Shown here: positions 12,215 to 22,484 of the stretch, in pieces
Numbering within the stretch: position 1 is the stretch's first letter
How the letters are laid out: each line of letters begins with the position of its first letter
Source: Clostridia bacterium
GTDB lineage: Bacteria; Bacillota; Peptococcia; DRI-13; UBA5745
Direction of reading: 5' to 3'
Assembly (NCBI GenBank): GCA_018434325.1
Contig: JAHDPO010000007.1
Coordinates: 266,210-330,209 of the forward strand
DNA: 64,000 bases
Position numbers and translations under genes: made by a program
Notes under the pieces: model-generated
What the model was told of the DNA's origin: nothing
What the model saw: the letters and a program-made list of their open reading frames with translations, nothing else
The model's database searches: none

Positions 12215-14107
12215 TCAAATTAGAGCATCAGCCGCTACAGGCTTAATCAGCGTTTTTTCCTTTGCAATGCTTAATGCCCTCATAGCATTGAGAATAGCCA
12301 GGACAGACACGCCCACATCGGCAAATACCGCGGCCCACATGCTGGCCATGCCCATAGCTCCCAGTATTAAAACCAGGCCCTTGACGCCTAAAGCAAATAC
12401 TGTGTTTTGTTTGGCGATGCCGATGGTCTTGCGGGCGACGGCAATGGCTGCGGCCAACTTTGAGGGCTCGTCGTTCATGATCACTACGTCGGCGGCCTCA
12501 ATAGCCGCGTCACTGCCCAAGGCTCCCATGGCGACGCCCACATCGGCCCGAGCCAATACCGGAGCGTCGTTGATGCCGTCACCGACGAAAACCAGCTTGC
12601 CCTTAGGGGATTTCTCCGCCATCAAAAGCTCCAGCTTGTCGACTTTATCCGCCGGCAAAAGCTGGGTAAAGACCTGGCCGATACCCAATTGTGCCGCCAC
12701 CTTTTTGCCGATGACGTCATTATCGCCGGTGAGCATCACTGTTTTTTTGATACCGCAGGCCTTCAGGCCGGCGATAGCTGCCGCCGCATCTTCTTTAATC
12801 TGATCCTCGATCAGAATGTACCCGGCATAAGCCCCCTGTTTAGCGACGTGAACTAAAGTGCCGACAGGACCTTCCGGCAGCCGGACGCCGGCTTTCTCCT
12901 CCATTAATTTATGGTTGCCGATGTAAACGGTGCTGCCGTCGATTTCCGCTTCTATGCCATAGCCCGGAATTTCCTGGACTTGACCGATTCTCGTCAAATC
13001 AGGCTCTTTACCATAAGCCCGGCGCAGAGACTGGGAAATCGGATGGGTGGAATAGCTTTCGCCCAAGGCCGCCAGCTCCAGCAATTGATCTGCCGGCATG
13101 GCCGCCGGCACAATTTCCGCCACATCAAAGCTGCCCTTCGTCAAAGTGCCTGTTTTATCAAAAACCACAATTTCAGCAGCGGCCAAGGCTTCCAAATAAT
13201 TGCCGCCCTTCACCAGCACGCCCTGCCGGGAGGAGCCGCCCAAGCCGCCGAAGAAGCTTAAGGGAATGGAGATCACCAAAGCACAGGGACAGGAGATAAC
13301 CAAAAAGGTCAGAGCCCGATAGACCCAGTCACTGAATTGAGCCCCGGCAATCACCAGGGGAGGCAGTACCGCCAGGCAGGCGGCAACGATAACCACCGCC
13401 GGCGTATAGTACCTGGCAAAACGGGTGATAAAGCTTTCCATATTGGCCTTTTTGCTGCTGGCATTCTCCACCAGGTCCAATATCCTGGCTACGGTGGATT
13501 GCTCAAACTCTTTGCTTACCTGCATCAGCAGCGTACCGTTTAAGTTGATGCAGCCGCTGAAAATTTCATTGCCCGGCAAGGCTTCCCGGGGCACGGATTC
13601 GCCGGTGAGGGCCGAGGTATCTAAAGTGGAATTACCTTCGGTGATCACTCCGTCCAAAGGCACCCGCTCACCGGGCTTGATCAAAATAATTTCTCCCACC
13701 TGCACCTCTTCCGGGTCAACCTCGATCCATTGCTCCTCCCTCATGATATTGGCATGATCCGGCCGGATATCCATCAAATCGGCAATGGATTTTCTCGATT
13801 TGCTGACCGCCACGGACTGGAAGAGCTCTCCCACCTGGTAAAACAGCATAACGGCAATGCCTTCCCGGTATTCCCCCAAGGCCAGGGCTCCAATAGTAGC
13901 AATAGTCATCAGGAAGTTTTCATCAAAAACCTGGCCCCTTCTGATGTTGCCGGCAGCCCTGAGCAGCACGTCGCCGCCGGCAATCAAATAACTGACCAGA
14001 TAGACGGCGATGAGGATCATTTCATCCGCCGGCAGCAGGATGCCGAGGACATACAGCGCCGCGGCGGCCAGAATTTTATATAGCTGTTTCTTTTGTTTCT
14101 TTGTCAT
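12215..14107 (-). CDS. Heavy-metal P1B-type ATPase, Zn/Cd/Pb type (CadA/ZntA-like), without N-terminal HMA domain
   Basis: TGES, SCPCALVISIP (CPC), DKTGTLT, GDGINDAP. TM8-region FADVGVSVLAILNAMR (Asp typical of Zn/Cd pumps). Confidence 0.85.
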   Translation of the reverse strand: MTKKQKKQLYKILAAAALYVLGILLPADEMILIAVYLVSYLIAGGDVLLRAAGNIRRGQVFDENFLMTIATIGALALGEYREGIAVMLFYQVGELFQSVAVSKSRKSIADLMDIRPDHANIMREEQWIEVDPEEVQVGEIILIKPGERVPLDGVITEGNSTLDTSALTGESVPREALPGNEIFSGCINLNGTLLMQVSKEFEQSTVARILDLVENASSKKANMESFITRFARYYTPAVVIVAACLAVLPPLVIAGAQFSDWVYRALTFLVISCPCALVISIPLSFFGGLGGSSRQGVLVKGGNYLEALAAAEIVVFDKTGTLTKGSFDVAEIVPAAMPADQLLELAALGESYSTHPISQSLRRAYGKEPDLTRIGQVQEIPGYGIEAEIDGSTVYIGNHKLMEEKAGVRLPEGPVGTLVHVAKQGAYAGYILIEDQIKEDAAAAIAGLKACGIKKTVMLTGDNDVIGKKVAAQLGIGQVFTQLLPADKVDKLELLMAEKSPKGKLVFVGDGINDAPVLARADVGVAMGALGSDAAIEAADVVIMNDEPSKLAAAIAVARKTIGIAKQNTVFALGVKGLVLILGAMGMASMWAAVFADVGVSVLAILNAMRALSIAKEKTLIKPVAADALI

Positions 14108-14117
14108 CTTTTCACCT

Positions 14118-14336
14118 TCAGGAAAGGATTACACAATCCGGCTCGATCTTGCTGACAATTTTTCTGGCCTGCTCCAAAATGGATTCGATGAGATTCTCAG
14201 CGGCATTGATAGTCAGCTTCTGAGTGACAAAATTAACGCTGGCGCTTTCCACACCCTCCAGCTTGCTGATAGCGTCTTCCATTTTGGCGGCGCAATGGGC
14301 GCAGCTCAGATCTTCCATTTTGTATACCTTTTTCAT
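14118..14336 (-). CDS. Stand-alone heavy-metal-associated (HMA) domain metallochaperone
   Basis: 72 aa ferredoxin-like HMA fold, metal site LSCAHCAAKME (CxxC). First gene of an operon with the P1B ATPase. Confidence 0.75.
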   Translation of the reverse strand: MKKVYKMEDLSCAHCAAKMEDAISKLEGVESASVNFVTQKLTINAAENLIESILEQARKIVSKIEPDCVILS

Positions 14337-14397
14337 GATTATGCCTCCTCAATTAGATTCGACTGGATTAAGTAAACGTTTTATTAAATCGCCATTT

Positions 14398-14477
14398 GAT
14401 TAAACACATATTTAATTCATCATCATTATATGCTGCGCCGCCGCATTTGTCAACATCGATTAAACAAATATTTAATT
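14398..14477 (-). promoter_or_regulatory. Promoter (TTGACA-17-TATAAT) flanked by two near-identical CzrA/CadC-like ArsR/SmtB operators
   Basis: Sites GATTAAACACATATTTAATT (14398-14417) and GATTAAACAAATATTTAATT (14458-14477). Minus-strand -35 is at 14448-14453 and -10 at 14425-14430. One site abuts the -35; the other overlaps the +1 region. Confidence 0.55.
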
Positions 14478-14771
14478 GAAATTTTAAAATTAAAAGAGCC
14501 TCATTCCAAAGGGAATAAAGGCTCCGTTTGCTATTTCCTTATATTGTCCAGCCTATATTCAATAAATAAACCGTATATTTTGCCCGCCGCCACCTCAAAG
14601 GTCAAACCGAACCTGTCATATAGCTGCTCCGCTGCCGCCACCGTAAGACAGCTTTCCAAGGAATCCTCCATAGCCATCGTCCCCCTTCATCCGGAATCCT
14701 GCGCAGGTCTTCGTCTGTGCTAATACTATTCCAAAGAGGGCTTGAATATGACCGGTGATCTCCCCTGCCGT

Positions 14772-15413
14772 TTAAGCGATATCGTTTGTGTCCGTAATAA
14801 AGTGACTGGCTGAATACAAGGCTTGCTCATCCCCTACAATATAGAGAATATCTCCGCTCAGCAAGGATGAATAGGGGCCGGGGGAGAGAATCGTCTGATC
14901 GCCGCGGTCAATGGCAATGATAGTGGCCCCGGTCTTATGCCAGAAGTTTAAATCGCTGATGGTCCTCCCCGCGATCTTGGAGTTGGGGGGCATGACAATC
15001 TCATAGGGAACAAAAGGAGTGGCTTTCTTGGCGCTGCCTGATGCGTTGATGAGGAACAGCATCTTCTCCATAGCCACGGCAGTTTCCCCGATCTGGCGTT
15101 GCATCCAGGCAAACAGCTCGTTCTTTACATCGGCAACGCTCTGCATCTCCTGATTTTGCCGGACAAACTCTGCCGCCTTTTTTACGGAGCGTATCCACAC
15201 GCCGCTGTTTTTCTTAATGTCGAGAATATCCACATCCTGGAGAAGATGGACAGCCTTGCGAATAGTCTCCGGAGAAACGCCGTACTGTGAAGACAAAACC
15301 GTGCGGCCGGACAGTTTTTGCCCTTCAACATATTTACCGCCCAGAATATCCTGGGCGATGTTGACGGCTATTTTGCGATAAACCGGTAAAGATACTCTCT
15401 TGCTTCTTACCAT
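14772..15413 (-). CDS. GntR-family regulator with C-terminal RCK_C/TrkA-C domain (BusR-like; c-di-AMP-responsive repressor family)
   Basis: N-terminal GntR wHTH (KLSGRTVLSSQYGVSPETIRKAV), central helix, C-terminal TrkA_C (IAGRTISDLNFWHKTGATIIAIDRGDQ). Divergent from the opuA-like operon. Confidence 0.7.
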   Translation of the reverse strand: MVRSKRVSLPVYRKIAVNIAQDILGGKYVEGQKLSGRTVLSSQYGVSPETIRKAVHLLQDVDILDIKKNSGVWIRSVKKAAEFVRQNQEMQSVADVKNELFAWMQRQIGETAVAMEKMLFLINASGSAKKATPFVPYEIVMPPNSKIAGRTISDLNFWHKTGATIIAIDRGDQTILSPGPYSSLLSGDILYIVGDEQALYSASHFITDTNDIA

Positions 15414-15577
15414 AATGTTTCACCGTAATCCTATATAATATAAACTTTTTTATTTCATTATTTTTAGTCTATCACAAAGACCAAATCCCGTCAAAGCAAA
15501 GCCGGTTTCATCCAATTGATTCTCCTAAAAAGCCGGAATATTTTTTGGCAACCCGTTAAAAAAATTCGGTTGGCAGT

Positions 15578-15606
15578 TTGACAAAGTAGCAACTTATTAT
15601 TATAAT
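15578..15606 (+). promoter_or_regulatory. Sigma-A promoter of the opuA-like operon (TTGACA-17-TATAAT)
   Basis: TTGACA 15578-15583, TATAAT 15601-15606. Confidence 0.65.
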
Positions 15607-15646
15607 ATAGAGCGTTAGAGTTGTCACTTATGAGGGAGGAGATGGA

Positions 15647-16645
15647 ATGATGAAGAAAATAAACAGAATTTTGGGGTTGCTTTTGGCATTGATGCTGTTG
15701 GCAGGCAGCCTGGCGGGATGCGCCCCCTCACAGCAAGCAAAAACCTTGACCTTTGCCGATGTGGGCTGGGATTCGATCCTGTTCCATAACGCAGTAGCGG
15801 GAACGGTTGCCGAGACCGTATTCGGCTACCAATGGTCAGAAGTATCCGGCAGTACGCCTATCACCCATGAAGCGGTGAAAAAAGGCGAGATTGACGTCCA
15901 TATGGAAGTGTGGACCGATAACCTTGCCAACTATAAAGATGATATTGAGGCAGGAGCCTTAAAAGAAGTGAGCATCAATTTTGACGACAATGCCCAGGGA
16001 CTTTATGTGCCCCGCTATGTGATCGAAGGCGATGCCGGGCGGGGCATTGAGCCCATGGCGCCCAATCTGAAAACGGTGGCGGATCTGAAAGATTATGCCT
16101 CTCTCTTCAAGGATCCCGAGGATTCCTCCAAGGGCATTATTTACGGCGGCATCGCAGGCTGGGCGATCACCGAAATCATCCACAAGAAGTATCTCCACTA
16201 CGGCCTGGATGCAAACTACAATTACATGGAGCCGGGTACCGATGCGGCCACCAGCGCCGTACTGGTAGCGGCCTACGACAGAGGTGAGCCGGTGGTGGCC
16301 TATTATTGGGAGCCTACCTGGCTGTTGGGCAAATACGACTTCGTCCTTCTTGAGGATGAGCCCTACGACCCGGAGCTATATTTTGAGGGTAAGACCGAGT
16401 GTCCCTCCGTCCGTGTAGCAGTCTGCACCAGCAACGATTTTTACGAAAAGGACCCGGAATTCGTGGCCTTTCTGTCCAAATACCGCACCTCCTCTGCCCT
16501 GACCAGCCAGGCCCTTGCCTATATAGAGGATACCGGCGCCGACTATAAAACGGCGGCCCGATGGTTTTTAAAGGAAAACCGGGATATGGTTGAAACCTGG
16601 CTTACAACAGAGCAGGCAGACAAACTATATGCGGCGATTGAATAG
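15647..16645 (+). CDS. Glycine betaine ABC transporter substrate-binding lipoprotein (OpuAC/ProX-like)
   Basis: Lipoprotein signal LLAGSLAGC; OpuAC fold motifs DVGWDSI, EVWTDN. Confidence 0.85.
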   Translation: MMKKINRILGLLLALMLLAGSLAGCAPSQQAKTLTFADVGWDSILFHNAVAGTVAETVFGYQWSEVSGSTPITHEAVKKGEIDVHMEVWTDNLANYKDDIEAGALKEVSINFDDNAQGLYVPRYVIEGDAGRGIEPMAPNLKTVADLKDYASLFKDPEDSSKGIIYGGIAGWAITEIIHKKYLHYGLDANYNYMEPGTDAATSAVLVAAYDRGEPVVAYYWEPTWLLGKYDFVLLEDEPYDPELYFEGKTECPSVRVAVCTSNDFYEKDPEFVAFLSKYRTSSALTSQALAYIEDTGADYKTAARWFLKENRDMVETWLTTEQADKLYAAIE

Positions 16646-16653
16646 GTGAGATT

Positions 16654-17526
16654 ATGAATTGGCTATTTGATTTTCCTTTTATCATCAGGATAAATACGAA
16701 TGCCATCGACAGGGCGGTGCGCTCCTTTGCCGCCGACCACGCCGCCTTCTTCGACGGAATCAAGGCAGGCCTTACCAATTTTGTGGGGGCCATCAACTGG
16801 CTGCTTAACCACATTCCTTGGTTTGTGTTGGTAGTCCTGGTGTTTTTCCTGGGCTGGAAAGGCCATAAACGGCTTCGTTCCGGCATTGCTTACAGCATCC
16901 TGCTCTGCATTATCGGTATGCTGGGCTTATGGGGCCTGATGAATTTGACCCTTTCCATTGTATTGGCCGGCGTAACCATTGCGCTGCTGCTGGGCTTACC
17001 CGTGGGCGTGCTGCTCTCCGGCTCCGACCGGGCCAATCAGGCGGCCCGGCCGGTGTTGGATATGATGCAAACCATGCCGGTTTTCGTTTATTTGATTCCT
17101 GCGGTGATCTTCTTTGGCATGGGCTCGGCCTCCGCCGTTATTGCAACCGTTATATATGCTATGGTGCCGGTTGTCCGCCTGACCAGCCTGGGAATCCGGC
17201 AGGTGGACGCCGAAGTGGTGGAAGCGGCCCGTTCTTTTGGTTCGACAAAATCCCAGATGCTGTTTAAGGTTCAGGTGCCTCAGGCACTGCCCACGATTAT
17301 GGCCGGCATCAATCAAACGCTGATGATGGCCATGTCCATGGTGGTTACCTGCTCGATGATCGGCGCCCGGGGACTTGGCAATGAAGTGCTCATCGCAGTA
17401 AACCGGATTGAAATATCCCGGGGATTTATGGCCGGCAGCTCGGTGGTTATTCTGGCCATTCTTCTTGACCGCCTGACTCAAGGCTGGTTTTCGGGACGCA
17501 AGAATGCGGGGGATGAACAACAATGA
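16654..17526 (+). CDS. Glycine betaine ABC transporter permease (OpuAB-like)
   Basis: BPD-transport (EAA loop region) permease, 6 TM. Confidence 0.85.
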   Translation: MNWLFDFPFIIRINTNAIDRAVRSFAADHAAFFDGIKAGLTNFVGAINWLLNHIPWFVLVVLVFFLGWKGHKRLRSGIAYSILLCIIGMLGLWGLMNLTLSIVLAGVTIALLLGLPVGVLLSGSDRANQAARPVLDMMQTMPVFVYLIPAVIFFGMGSASAVIATVIYAMVPVVRLTSLGIRQVDAEVVEAARSFGSTKSQMLFKVQVPQALPTIMAGINQTLMMAMSMVVTCSMIGARGLGNEVLIAVNRIEISRGFMAGSSVVILAILLDRLTQGWFSGRKNAGDEQQ

Positions 17527-18698
17527 GCGAAATCATTATTGAAACAAAAAATGTATCGAAGCTATATGGCGTACGCCGCGATGAAGCGGCAGAGCTGCTG
17601 CGGGGGGGCGCCGAAAAGAGCGAGGTATTGAAAAAAACCGGGGTAACCACTGCCTTGTATGATGTAAGCTTGCGAATCCCCCGGGGCAAGATCTTTGTGA
17701 TCATCGGCTTGTCCGGCTCAGGAAAGTCAACGATGGTTCGCTGCTTTAACCGCTTAAACCGTCCTACCTGGGGCTCAATTATATTTGACGGCGTCGATCT
17801 GCTGAAGCTCTCCAATCAGGAGCTGCTGGAATTCAGGCGGCGCAAGGTGTCCATGGTCTTTCAGTCCTTTGGCCTGATGAGTCACCGCAATGTTCTGGGC
17901 AATGTGGCTTATGGACTGGAGGTCTCCGGCATGGGCCGTGAAGAGCGGGAAAAGCGGGCCAGAGAGTCCATTGCCCTCGTAGGACTGGAAGGCTGGGAAG
18001 ATGCCATGATCGGCAACCTGTCCGGCGGTATGCGCCAGCGGGTGGGCCTGGCCCGGGCTTTAGCAAACGACCCGGAAGTGCTTCTGATGGATGAGCCTTT
18101 TTCCGCACTGGACCCATTGGTGCGCAATGATATGCAGTTTGAGCTGCTCTCCATTCAGCGCAAGCTGGGCAAAACCGTGATTTTCATTACCCATGACATT
18201 GACGAGGCCTTCCGTCTTGGCGATACCGTTGCCATCATGCGGGACGGGCGCCTGATCCAGGTAGACACGCCCGAGGGCATGAGCACAAACCCGGCGGACG
18301 AATACGTACGGCGCTTTATTAACTCCGCCGATAAGTCAAAGGTTTTATCGGTGCGCAATATTATGATCACGCCGGTGAGCCTGATTAAGCCCGGCGACGG
18401 TATCGACCATGCCCTCCGGGTGATGCGCAAGAACGAACTGTCTTCCGTTTATGCCGTGGACGGTCAAATGAAGCTAAAAGGTATCCTTACCCTGGCGGAC
18501 GCCATGCGGGCCAAACGGGAAAGCCTGGATCTTTCCGAGATGATTGTGAAGGATATTCCCTCAACCTCTCCCGACGCTTCCGTGGAAGAGATTATACCCC
18601 TGGCAGCCGAATCCTCTTATCCCTTGGCGGTTTTAGACAATGAGGGCCGCCTACAGGGAATCGTAACAAAGGCAAGCGTTTTATCTTCATTAATATAA
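17523..18698 (+). CDS. Glycine betaine ABC transporter ATP-binding protein with C-terminal tandem CBS domains (OpuAA-like)
   Basis: Walker A GLSGSGKST, LSGGMRQRV, Walker B LLMDEPFSALD; CBS pair at C-terminus. Confidence 0.9.
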   Translation: MSEIIIETKNVSKLYGVRRDEAAELLRGGAEKSEVLKKTGVTTALYDVSLRIPRGKIFVIIGLSGSGKSTMVRCFNRLNRPTWGSIIFDGVDLLKLSNQELLEFRRRKVSMVFQSFGLMSHRNVLGNVAYGLEVSGMGREEREKRARESIALVGLEGWEDAMIGNLSGGMRQRVGLARALANDPEVLLMDEPFSALDPLVRNDMQFELLSIQRKLGKTVIFITHDIDEAFRLGDTVAIMRDGRLIQVDTPEGMSTNPADEYVRRFINSADKSKVLSVRNIMITPVSLIKPGDGIDHALRVMRKNELSSVYAVDGQMKLKGILTLADAMRAKRESLDLSEMIVKDIPSTSPDASVEEIIPLAAESSYPLAVLDNEGRLQGIVTKASVLSSLI

Positions 18699-18703
18699 AA
18701 TAA

Positions 18704-18840
18704 TACTATTCTGCGATTAAAATAGCATATATGCCAATCTGCGTGGGCAAAGCCCACTATAGCTATTTATGTGGGCTTGCCCACTGCCGCACTCTGTGCG
18801 GCAAATGAAAAACTAAAGGTTTTTCATTGCAGATTAGTAT
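18704..18840. repeat. MITE-like dispersed repeat, copy 1 (12-bp terminal inverted repeats ATACTATTCTGC / GCAGATTAGTAT, internal hairpins)
   Basis: Left end ATACTATTCTGCGATTAAAATA and right end GCAGATTAGTAT are shared with 32459-32543. Termini are mutually reverse-complementary (11/12). The interior carries hairpins GTGGGCAAAGCCCAC, GTGGGCTTGCCCAC, GCCGCACTCTGTGCGGC and AATGAAAAACTAAAGGTTTTTCATT. Confidence 0.55.
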
Positions 18841-18857
18841 AAGCGCGCTTTTTGCCA

Positions 18858-18895
18858 TAAAAAAATCTACCGGCATAGTCGGTAGATTTTTTTAT
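18858..18895. terminator. Bidirectional intrinsic terminator (opuA-like operon and the ArsR gene converge here)
   Basis: A6-AAATCTACCG-gcatagt-CGGTAGATTT-T7. Confidence 0.7.
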
Positions 18896-18916
18896 GGCAA
18901 AAAGCCGGCGGACTTT

Positions 18917-19327
18917 CTATTTCTCGTCGCCGCAGTGCTTGCGGCCTGCCGGAGTGGGGCATTTGATCATAAAAATATCATCGACAATCTTATGAACCAG
19001 CTCGGCTTCGGCCGTATCGGCCAAGGTATAATGAATCTCTTTACCGATGCGGCGATTGCTGATCAAACCGGAATGCTTCAGCATTTTTAAATGGTGCGAT
19101 ACCGCAGGGGCGCTCATATTGATGGCGGCAGCTATGTTGCAGACGCATTGCTCGCTGTGGCATAGAATCCAGAGGATCCTCAGCCTGGTGCTGTCGCTGA
19201 TCAGCTGAAAAGTCTCCGCCACCCGCTGGAAGGCTCCGCCGCCCGGCATAGACGCCAAAATTTTTTCCGTATCCTGGCCGTGATCATGAGGCAAATAAGC
19301 CCCTTCCGTCGCTGGACTGGTCAACAT
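18917..19327 (-). CDS. ArsR/SmtB-family metalloregulator (CadC-like, alpha3N Cys site)
   Basis: HTH LISDSTRLRILWIL...MSAPAVSHHLKMLKHSGLI; metal site CHSEQCVCNI (CVC as in CadC) plus C-terminal Cys pair. Confidence 0.75.
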   Translation of the reverse strand: MLTSPATEGAYLPHDHGQDTEKILASMPGGGAFQRVAETFQLISDSTRLRILWILCHSEQCVCNIAAAINMSAPAVSHHLKMLKHSGLISNRRIGKEIHYTLADTAEAELVHKIVDDIFMIKCPTPAGRKHCGDEK

Positions 19328-19496
19328 CGGTCCCTCCTATACGTAAGCAAAATGCCGCCCGGCCTAAAATTCCGCCGTCTTTGCAGCTGCCTTTAGTTTA
19401 AGGCTAAAGGCCGGGCTTGTCAATTGCTTCACGCACCAGCCGTGTCCGGGGTCTGCCCCGCTACCCGTCATATCATCCGGGATCTGCCGCGCCGGC

Positions 19497-19769
19497 TTAC
19501 TTCGCCAGCTTATCCAATATTTCATTGACCTCAGCCATCTTGGCCTGCTCCACCAAAGGATCCTCAGAAGCAAAAGCCTCTTTCAGGCAGTGCTCCACAT
19601 GGGCTTTCAGAACCTCCCGGTTGGCTTTGCGCAATATGGACTCCGTAGCCATCAGCTGATTGGAAATATCGATGCAATAGCGATCCTCCTCTACCATTTT
19701 AAGCAGGCCGTCCAGCTGGCCCCGGGCTGTTTTTAACAGCCGGTCAATCATCTCACGTTTCGCCCTCAT
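19497..19769 (-). CDS. csoR: CsoR/RcnR-family copper-sensing repressor
   Basis: 90 aa; Cu(I) ligands in RYCIDISNQ (Cys), HVEHC (His, Cys). Confidence 0.8.
   Translation of the reverse strand: MRAKREMIDRLLKTARGQLDGLLKMVEEDRYCIDISNQLMATESILRKANREVLKAHVEHCLKEAFASEDPLVEQAKMAEVNEILDKLAK

Positions 19770-19793: not shown

Positions 19794-22484
<2,691 letters not shown>

Follow-up and report, generated by a model that had tools for sequence, protein, structure and literature searches.

We asked which regulator reads two nearly identical sites that bracket the promoter of an operon for a stand-alone HMA metal-binding protein and a P-type ATPase, located in a 64,000-nt stretch of DNA from a Clostridia bacterium (hereafter the window), and whether the ArsR/SmtB-type protein encoded about 4.5 kb away could be that regulator, as a sequence-only reading of the same DNA had proposed. 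Published operators of the ArsR/SmtB family consist of one or two inverted repeats of the 12-2-12 type, situated at the start of transcription or close to it, and some of the regulators are remotely encoded (PMC8790569). For comparison we collected about 90 related loci (given L numbers below), 60 of which came from a scan with the ATPase using one genome per species and about 30 from exact-protein look-ups of ArsR homologues. The comparative evidence argues that the two sites, named A and B, are operators of the dimeric ArsR/SmtB repressor encoded at 19327..18917, which would act on them in trans; we give this reading a probability of roughly 0.8.

The hma–ATPase operon

The ATPase gene begins 10 nt downstream of hma, and the features of the locus are collected in Table 1. 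When compared with TIGR01512, the model for the cadmium family of P1B-2 enzymes, the ATPase scored 524.3 bits (cut-off 313.5), and its translation displays CPC (in SCPCALV), N-x7-K (in QNTVFALGVK) and DVG-x7-N (in ADVGVSVLAILN). The combination of CPC, N-x7-K and DxG-x7-N is the P1B-2 signature of Zn/Cd/Pb pumps in Arguello's classification, and both this signature and the family model place the predicted enzyme in the P1B-2 class. It carries no fused N-terminal HMA or other metal-binding domain, which in part explains why it scored below the cut-offs of the ZntA equivalog models.

The promoter of the operon is identical in loci L001 and L002. The hma leader gave a folding z-score of -0.4 against shuffled sequences and no match in Rfam when examined for a riboswitch or attenuator, and thus no alternative at the RNA level was found. 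The terminator-like hairpin directly upstream of site A would shield the hma promoter from transcription arriving from upstream. Preceding this hairpin (14520-14499), also on the minus strand, there is a 48-aa ORF at 14531-14677 (MAMEDSLESCLTVAAAEQLYDRFGLTFEVAAGKIYGLFIEYRLDNIRK) having a GGGGGA ribosome-binding site; it gave no match in a Pfam search, and the DNA around it is kept in L001 and L002.

Table 1. Coordinates of the features of the locus, in window numbering and ordered along the minus strand.
Feature	Position	Strand	Description or basis
copA	19794..22484	minus	
csoR	19497..19769	minus	
arsR promoter	19395..19423	minus	TTGACA-17-TAAACT; without TTAAAC-type operator
arsR	18917..19327	minus	ArsR/SmtB-family repressor, 136 aa, 'subfamily W'; PF01022, NF033788, AF2 model
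Window-specific block	14755..18917		4,163 bp; busR-like gene and opuA genes, between arsR and the hma promoter region
opuA genes	15647-18698	plus	Glycine-betaine ABC transporter
busR-like gene	14772..15413	minus	Regulator with GntR and TrkA_C domains (BusR architecture)
Terminator-like hairpin	14499..14520	minus	Directly upstream of site A
Site A	14458..14477		Putative operator, promoter-distal; plus strand GATTAAACAAATATTTAATT, minus strand AATTAAATATTTGTTTAATC
hma–ATPase promoter	14425..14453	minus	Sigma-70 type, TTGACA (14453-14448)-17-TATAAT (14430-14425); 12/12 consensus
Site B	14398..14417		Putative operator, promoter-proximal; plus strand GATTAAACACATATTTAATT, minus strand AATTAAATATGTGTTTAATC
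B'	14383-14400	minus	3 mismatches to the palindrome; 16-bp phase with site B
B''	14367-14384	minus	3 mismatches to the palindrome; 16-bp steps after site B
hma	14118..14336	minus	Stand-alone HMA metal-binding protein, 72 aa; PF00403 (E = 2.1e-14), CAHC motif
ATPase gene	12215..14107	minus	P1B-2-type (Zn/Cd/Pb class) P-type ATPase, 630 aa; TIGR01512 and translation motifs

Two operator-like sites flank the promoter core

Sites A and B, each 20 nt long, are identical at 19 of 20 positions and lie exactly where the sequence-only reading had placed them, with the single difference that it had described. A search of both strands with the 20-mer, allowing three mismatches, found these two as the sole matches in the window, for which the chance expectation was 0.01 matches; none of 100 dinucleotide-preserving shuffles gave two or more. 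The looser regular expressions ATTAAA-N6-TTTAAT and AACA-N2-TATT again returned only sites A and B. Apart from two weak phased matches beside site B, the window held no further operator copies by either the mismatch search or the looser expressions, and there is consequently no TTAAAC-type site at the arsR, copA or opuA promoters. The two phased matches, B' and B'', may be auxiliary sites; a B'-like site 16 bp past site B, with two mismatches and thus better than that of the window, is also found in L001, L002 and L014.

Site A (14477 to 14458) ends 4 nt upstream of the -35 element and site B (14417 to 14398) begins 7 nt after the -10 element, hence covering approximately +1/+2 to +20 from the predicted start, which agrees with the earlier description of one site abutting -35 and the other lying over +1. 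In each site one half is perfect (GTTTAAT) and the other degenerate (ATTAAAT instead of ATTAAAC), and site A agrees with ATTAAAC-N4-GTTTAAT at 13 of its 14 specified positions. To call the sites imperfect 7-6-7 palindromes, as had been done, is acceptable for these two copies, but the motif underlying them in the relatives is an 18-nt palindrome, ATTAAACRA-TYGTTTAAT, that recurs upstream of orthologous hma genes.

The palindrome recurs at orthologous promoters

The palindrome is conserved among distant Clostridia: non-redundant related loci amounting to about 1.08 Mb contained 13 perfect copies of ATTAAAC-N4-GTTTAAT, every one of them at an hma/ATPase promoter. The palindrome started 7–15 nt after a good -10 element in 24 related promoters, which is the position equivalent to site B, and with this constant placement it was kept between diverged flanks at loci encoding ATPase orthologues only 53–68% identical. 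Site A was conserved in place solely in L001, L002 and L062/63, its centre being 59 to 65 bp from that of site B among the relatives. As site A is thus confined to the closest relatives, the basic operator would be site B, to which site A was added in this clade. These comparisons support the original proposal of ArsR/SmtB-type operators placed so as to repress.

The zinc sensors CzrA of Staphylococcus aureus and Bacillus subtilis and the cyanobacterial SmtB and ZiaR, all of the alpha5 type, have TGAACA-type operators. The half-site of the window sites and their relatives is TTAAAC/GTTTAA, as against TGAACA/TGTTCA of the CzrA type, and the sequence-only assignment of a CzrA-type core could thereby be kept in part: geometry and inner core AACA..TGTT are shared, but the half-site is another. 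We accordingly describe the window operator, from its sequence, as a variant of the 12-2-12 TGAACA type and not as a member of it. A second ArsR subfamily, which resembles CadC/CzrA and has an SHQL recognition helix together with an alpha5 DxH..HxxE motif, also forms arsR-hma-ATPase operons. Its loci carry ataTGAACA-N4-TTCAtat at the same promoter position, and the loci with an ArsR of the window's own subfamily (W) carry TTAAAC palindromes. The kind of operator thus varies with the repressor subfamily, which is what would be seen if the proteins recognise the respective sites.

Two further observations concern operator-like repeats in the relatives. In L005, L008, L010, L057, L006 and L019 (Hungatella, Blautia and others) canonical ATATGAACA-NN-TGTTCATAT operators follow the -10 of orthologous hma–ATPase operons, about 60–100 nt upstream of hma, with an ArsR gene within 10 kb only in L006; remote encoding of the repressor seems common in this operon family. 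Just past the arsR stop codon, L062:500-600 and L061:8440-8530 contain four direct repeats like RYGTTTGYYAAAT, which resemble operator half-sites and are absent from the window.

The ArsR protein and its probable sensor site

The product of arsR passed the curated domain thresholds of PF01022 (HTH_5, 60.5 bits against a cut-off of 22, E = 1.4e-16) and NF033788 (88.6 bits against 55), scores that place it by sequence in the ArsR/SmtB family. The AF2 model, with a mean pLDDT of 86.7, predicts a winged-helix fold with helices at residues 30-43, 46-57, 62-68 and 73-86, strands at 89-94 and 97-102 and a last helix at 106-118, corresponding to the canonical order alpha1-alpha2-alpha3-alphaR-beta-beta-alpha5. 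The nearest solved structures were those of Listeria CadC (Lmo1102), SmtB, NmtR and CzrA, with E values from 1e-13 to 1e-10. Neither tblastn nor an HMM search of all six-frame ORFs revealed a second ArsR/SmtB gene in the 64-kb window, in line with what had been stated before.

A database search for the subfamily gave 343 matches. An alignment of 118 near-full-length homologues showed H14, H16, C56, H57, C61, H78, H79, H112 and D116 to be invariant or nearly so, while E59 was found in 97% and C123 in 94%; the recognition helix reads SAPAVSHHL. An ungapped alignment to SmtB residues 32-116 showed that the alpha5 motif DxH-x10-H-x2-(H/E) is absent from the window protein. The SmtB ligand positions fall on D104, A106, D117 and M120, of which only D104 is kept, at 68% conservation. 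In the same alignment C61 pairs with C61 of SmtB, and H14 and H16 lie at the N-terminal alpha3N ligand region of SmtB.

The alpha3N site, as defined in CadC, consists of two N-terminal Cys residues together with a CxC in alpha3 (PMC11672702). The CadC-like CVC site earlier ascribed to the window protein is borne out for C61, but C63 is present in only 27% of the 118 homologues and the N-terminal Cys pair is absent. Judged by its residues, the protein thus has neither the CadC-type alpha3N ligand set nor the alpha5 sensor of the CzrA/SmtB type, and since it fits neither class, a modified, His-containing alpha3N site is most likely its sensor. A limited literature search for a characterised member of subfamily W gave general ArsR/SmtB papers only.

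Because the promoter of arsR is without such an operator, the gene is probably not autoregulated in this genome. The classical arrangement of an autoregulated arsR-efflux operon was found solely in L084; the window has no operator-like site within 19395-19423. Overlapping the -10 (TAAACT) of the arsR promoter there is an inverted repeat, CCTTTAG-N7-CTAAAGG, at 19390-19410 on the minus strand, which is kept in L002 and of which the 3' half is kept in L061; it could be a site for another factor.

W-type repressors are linked to palindrome-bearing operons

W-type ArsR proteins with 53–93% identity to that of the window are linked to hma/P1B-2 ATPase operons having TTAAAC palindromes, in six gene arrangements. 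These are arsR-hma-ATPase with promoter and operator in the spacer between arsR and hma (L002, L062/63, L070 and L074); hma-ATPase-arsR (L064/65); arsR convergent and downstream of the operon (L011, L079, L089 and L091); arsR 8 kb away (L014); arsR 4.5 kb away (this window); and a two-gene operon of arsR and ATPase, whose own promoter has the palindrome 8 nt past the -10 (L084). The last is, at the level of sequence, the cleanest link between subfamily W and the TTAAAC motif. Among 13 W proteins for which the gene context was read, 12 have such an ATPase at most 10 kb away or, for a single protein, immediately downstream on a different contig. For one protein (P0005) the long contig L061 is interrupted by a prophage, so that the linkage is visible solely on the two short contigs L062/63. 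L078 (56% identity) is the exception, with a DJ-1/PfpI gene adjoining and no ATPase nearby. The proposal that the ArsR gene 4.5 kb away encodes the likely partner in trans is strengthened by this synteny and in particular by L002, in which arsR lies directly upstream of hma.

A conserved metal island was seen in L091:1-16366, L079 and L089, comprising genes for a CadC/CzrA-like ArsR, a W-type ArsR, the hma–ATPase operon in the opposite orientation (ATPase<-hma), copA->csoR, a MATE transporter and feoAB. In L091 its neighbours are relaxase, MobC and ArdC-type genes, a setting that suggests carriage on a conjugative element.

An insertion separates arsR from its predicted target

Locus L002, from a Clostridia MAG, encodes an ATPase and an ArsR that are 92% and 93% identical, respectively, to those of the window. 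It is collinear with the minus strand of the window in the order copA, csoR, arsR, small ORF, site A, promoter, site B, hma and ATPase, with copA-csoR-arsR-hma-ATPase being contiguous, and the 4,163 bp at 14755-18917 of the window correspond to 13 bp in L002. As arsR is adjacent to hma in more distant lineages too, the contiguous state is ancestral and it is the window that carries an insertion. By this comparison, the separation of arsR from the operon results from a busR-opuA insertion into the stretch from the stop codon of arsR to the hma promoter region and is not a designed long-range circuit; the predicted action of arsR in trans would be due only to this block having come between it and an ancestrally adjacent target.

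The same spacer is interrupted differently in other genomes. A Mu-like prophage at L061:8690-16399, with genes for an HTH_3 repressor, a DDE/Mu transposase, AAA_22, Gam, GemA and Mor, sits immediately upstream of the place that site A has in the sister contigs L062/L063; the junction reads ...aaaaacttttaaaaag followed by tgtacag, and arsR is split from the operon in that genome. In L001 an extra 1.24 kb (L001:1100-2343), in which we saw no convincing ORF, lies between the small ORF with its terminator and site A and is absent from both the window and L002. Taken with the block in the window, this suggests that the arsR–hma spacer has been struck by insertions repeatedly. A long AT-flanked hairpin (aaaaaaatctaccgactatgccggtagattttttt, 18860-18900), which looks like a bidirectional terminator and was not called by the terminator scan, lies in the window where the arsR gene and the convergent opuA operon end, after the stop codon of arsR.

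The copper module has a putative operator of its own

Upstream of the operon on the minus strand, copA is followed by csoR and arsR, with opuA on the plus strand and the busR-like gene thereafter. Just past the -10 of the copA promoter (TTGACA-17-CATAGT) there is a GC-rich palindrome, ACACCACCCCCGAGGGGTGT, at 22525-22506 of the minus strand, which looks like a CsoR-type operator for the copA-csoR operon. No TTAAAC site was found at the copA promoter and no GC-rich palindrome at the hma promoter. With a separate type of operator at the promoter of each module, the cis-elements lend no support to the suggested cross-talk between copper and Zn/Cd regulation, and that part of the sequence-only reading was not upheld. 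No terminator was detected between csoR and arsR, so that transcriptional read-through from csoR into arsR, which is possible judging from the sequence, is the sole open route to such cross-talk.

Other candidates for the factor reading sites A and B

The most serious competitor to the local ArsR is another W-type paralogue encoded outside the 64 kb viewed here, with the local arsR serving something else. Such a partner would agree with the local arsR promoter being free of an operator, with the two ArsR genes found side by side in L079, L089 and L091, and with the many orthologous operons that lack a nearby ArsR gene. However, orthologues of the local ArsR are syntenic with the operon in the six arrangements described, the one in L002 being immediately adjacent and the window differing from it by a clean insertion only, and the second gene of the two-ArsR islands is of the CadC/CzrA-like kind with an SHQL helix, paired elsewhere with TGAACA operators. 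We consider an outside paralogue unlikely. About 20 orthologous hma–ATPase loci have no ArsR gene within 10 kb, and 11 of these have a TTAAAC-type palindrome (eight perfect, three with two mismatches). When 23 loci lacking an obvious ArsR gene were searched by HMM for overlooked ones in all six-frame ORFs, only the already known L006 gene was found. These 11 palindromes, with neighbours as different as a serine recombinase gene in L024 of Anthropogastromicrobium aceti and an AraC-family gene in L009 of Emergencia timonensis, could also speak for an unlinked factor of another family binding the palindrome, the linkage to W-type ArsR then reflecting co-transfer of metal-resistance genes. No alternative regulator is shared by or conserved beside the operator loci without ArsR, though, and in the minimal arsR–ATPase operon of L084 the palindrome is the only promoter element; moreover, the motif is a variant, by one base per half, of the documented ArsR/SmtB repeat of TGAACA type at the same position. 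We regard such a factor as distinctly less probable than the outside paralogue.

That the repeats have no regulatory role at all, being an AT-rich UP-element-like sequence or a chance local duplication, would suit the location of site A at the place of a UP element and the AT-rich surroundings, but is very improbable in view of the low chance expectation and of the palindrome being kept at the same -10 offset while the flanks and the ATPases diverged. The gene immediately upstream of the operon on the same strand, in the window as in L001, is the busR-like one. BusR is a c-di-AMP-responsive repressor of GntR/RCK_C architecture, and control of the hma–ATPase promoter by its relative through sites A and B could be imagined from this position. 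The DNA signal read by BusR is a pair of GAC motifs at a spacing of 22 bp (PMC8517857), but no GAC-N20-24-GTC pattern occurs at the hma promoter (14337-14560), and the palindrome is conserved in many loci where busR is absent, including L002, which is devoid of the whole busR-opuA block. On motif and phylogenetic distribution taken together, the busR product was thus ruled out as the binder of the two sites.

A model for repression and metal release

With the W-type ArsR as the preferred regulator, we propose the following model, in which DNA binding, repression, the identity of the metal and the role of site A are all deduced from sequence comparison. Without metal, the dimeric repressor would occupy site B (+1 to about +20) and thereby block open-complex formation or promoter escape at this promoter of consensus strength; it would also sit on site A (about -59 to -40, beside the -35), which may add occupancy or cooperativity. 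Binding of a divalent soft or borderline metal to the sensor residues would lower the affinity for DNA and allow expression of the HMA protein and the P1B-2 ATPase, the inducing metal being most probably Zn, Cd or Pb, as judged from the signature of the pump. The predicted sensor is of a modified alpha3N type, formed by H14 and H16 of the N-terminal arm together with C56, H57 and C61 at the alpha2/alpha3 junction, and H112, D116 and C123 may contribute.

Relation to characterised ArsR/SmtB systems

The predicted system resembles those of CzrA, SmtB and ZiaR in the winged-helix ArsR fold, in an operator that is a perfect or imperfect inverted repeat with the core AACA-NN-TGTT, one or two copies of which lie over or beside the start of transcription of a gene for metal efflux, and in the expected release of the repressor by metal. 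It differs from them in the half-site, being TTAAAC and not TGAACA, in lacking the alpha5 motif, in having SHHL instead of SHQL in the recognition helix, and in probably not being autoregulated through this operator in the window. With CadC of S. aureus plasmid pI258 and of Listeria (Lmo1102), the alpha3N sensor of Cd, Pb and Zn, it shares the SHHL helix, a Cys at the N-terminus of alpha3 (C61 in the window, C58 in CadC) and an operator over +1 at the gene for a P1B-2 ATPase (cadA in CadC), regulation in the window being predicted; Lmo1102 was the best match among solved structures (E = 1.1e-13). Unlike CadC, however, subfamily W has an invariant H14-x-H16 in place of the N-terminal Cys pair, mostly lacks the second Cys of the CxC, has the additional invariant residues C56, H57, H112 and D116, and in most arrangements does not have arsR as the first gene of the ATPase operon.

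Published descriptions offer precedents for both a modified sensor site and remote encoding. AztR of Anabaena is a Zn/Cd/Pb sensor that uses a modified alpha3N site alone and controls a P1B ATPase (PMC11672702), and AzuR is an SmtB-type regulator encoded far from its 12-2-12 target (PMC8790569). Both differ from the protein studied here in belonging to another phylum and in having operators of the TGAACA type.

It is tempting, at somewhat less than even odds in our estimate, to see in the window protein a representative of a hitherto uncharacterised ArsR/SmtB sensory class that would be widespread among Clostridia of the gut and the environment and would often reside on mobile metal islands. 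Such a class would be distinguished by an invariant His-x-His N-terminal arm, by C56, H57 and C61 at the alpha2/alpha3 junction, by an H112/D116/C123 cluster on or after alpha5 and by an operator dialect of its own, namely the TTAAAC palindrome; its expression would usually be constitutive and not autoregulated, and it might select metals differently from both CadC and CzrA.

The understanding of metal sensing as such is unchanged by these results, which instead give a candidate pair of repressor and operator for an efflux operon of the Zn/Cd/Pb type in Clostridia that have been little studied. The predicted, seemingly long-range regulatory link arose simply by insertion of an osmoprotectant-uptake module between the repressor gene and its target. 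An operator consensus and a set of likely sensor residues are now at hand for this ArsR subfamily, and may be of use for regulon annotation and for choosing parts for metal biosensors.
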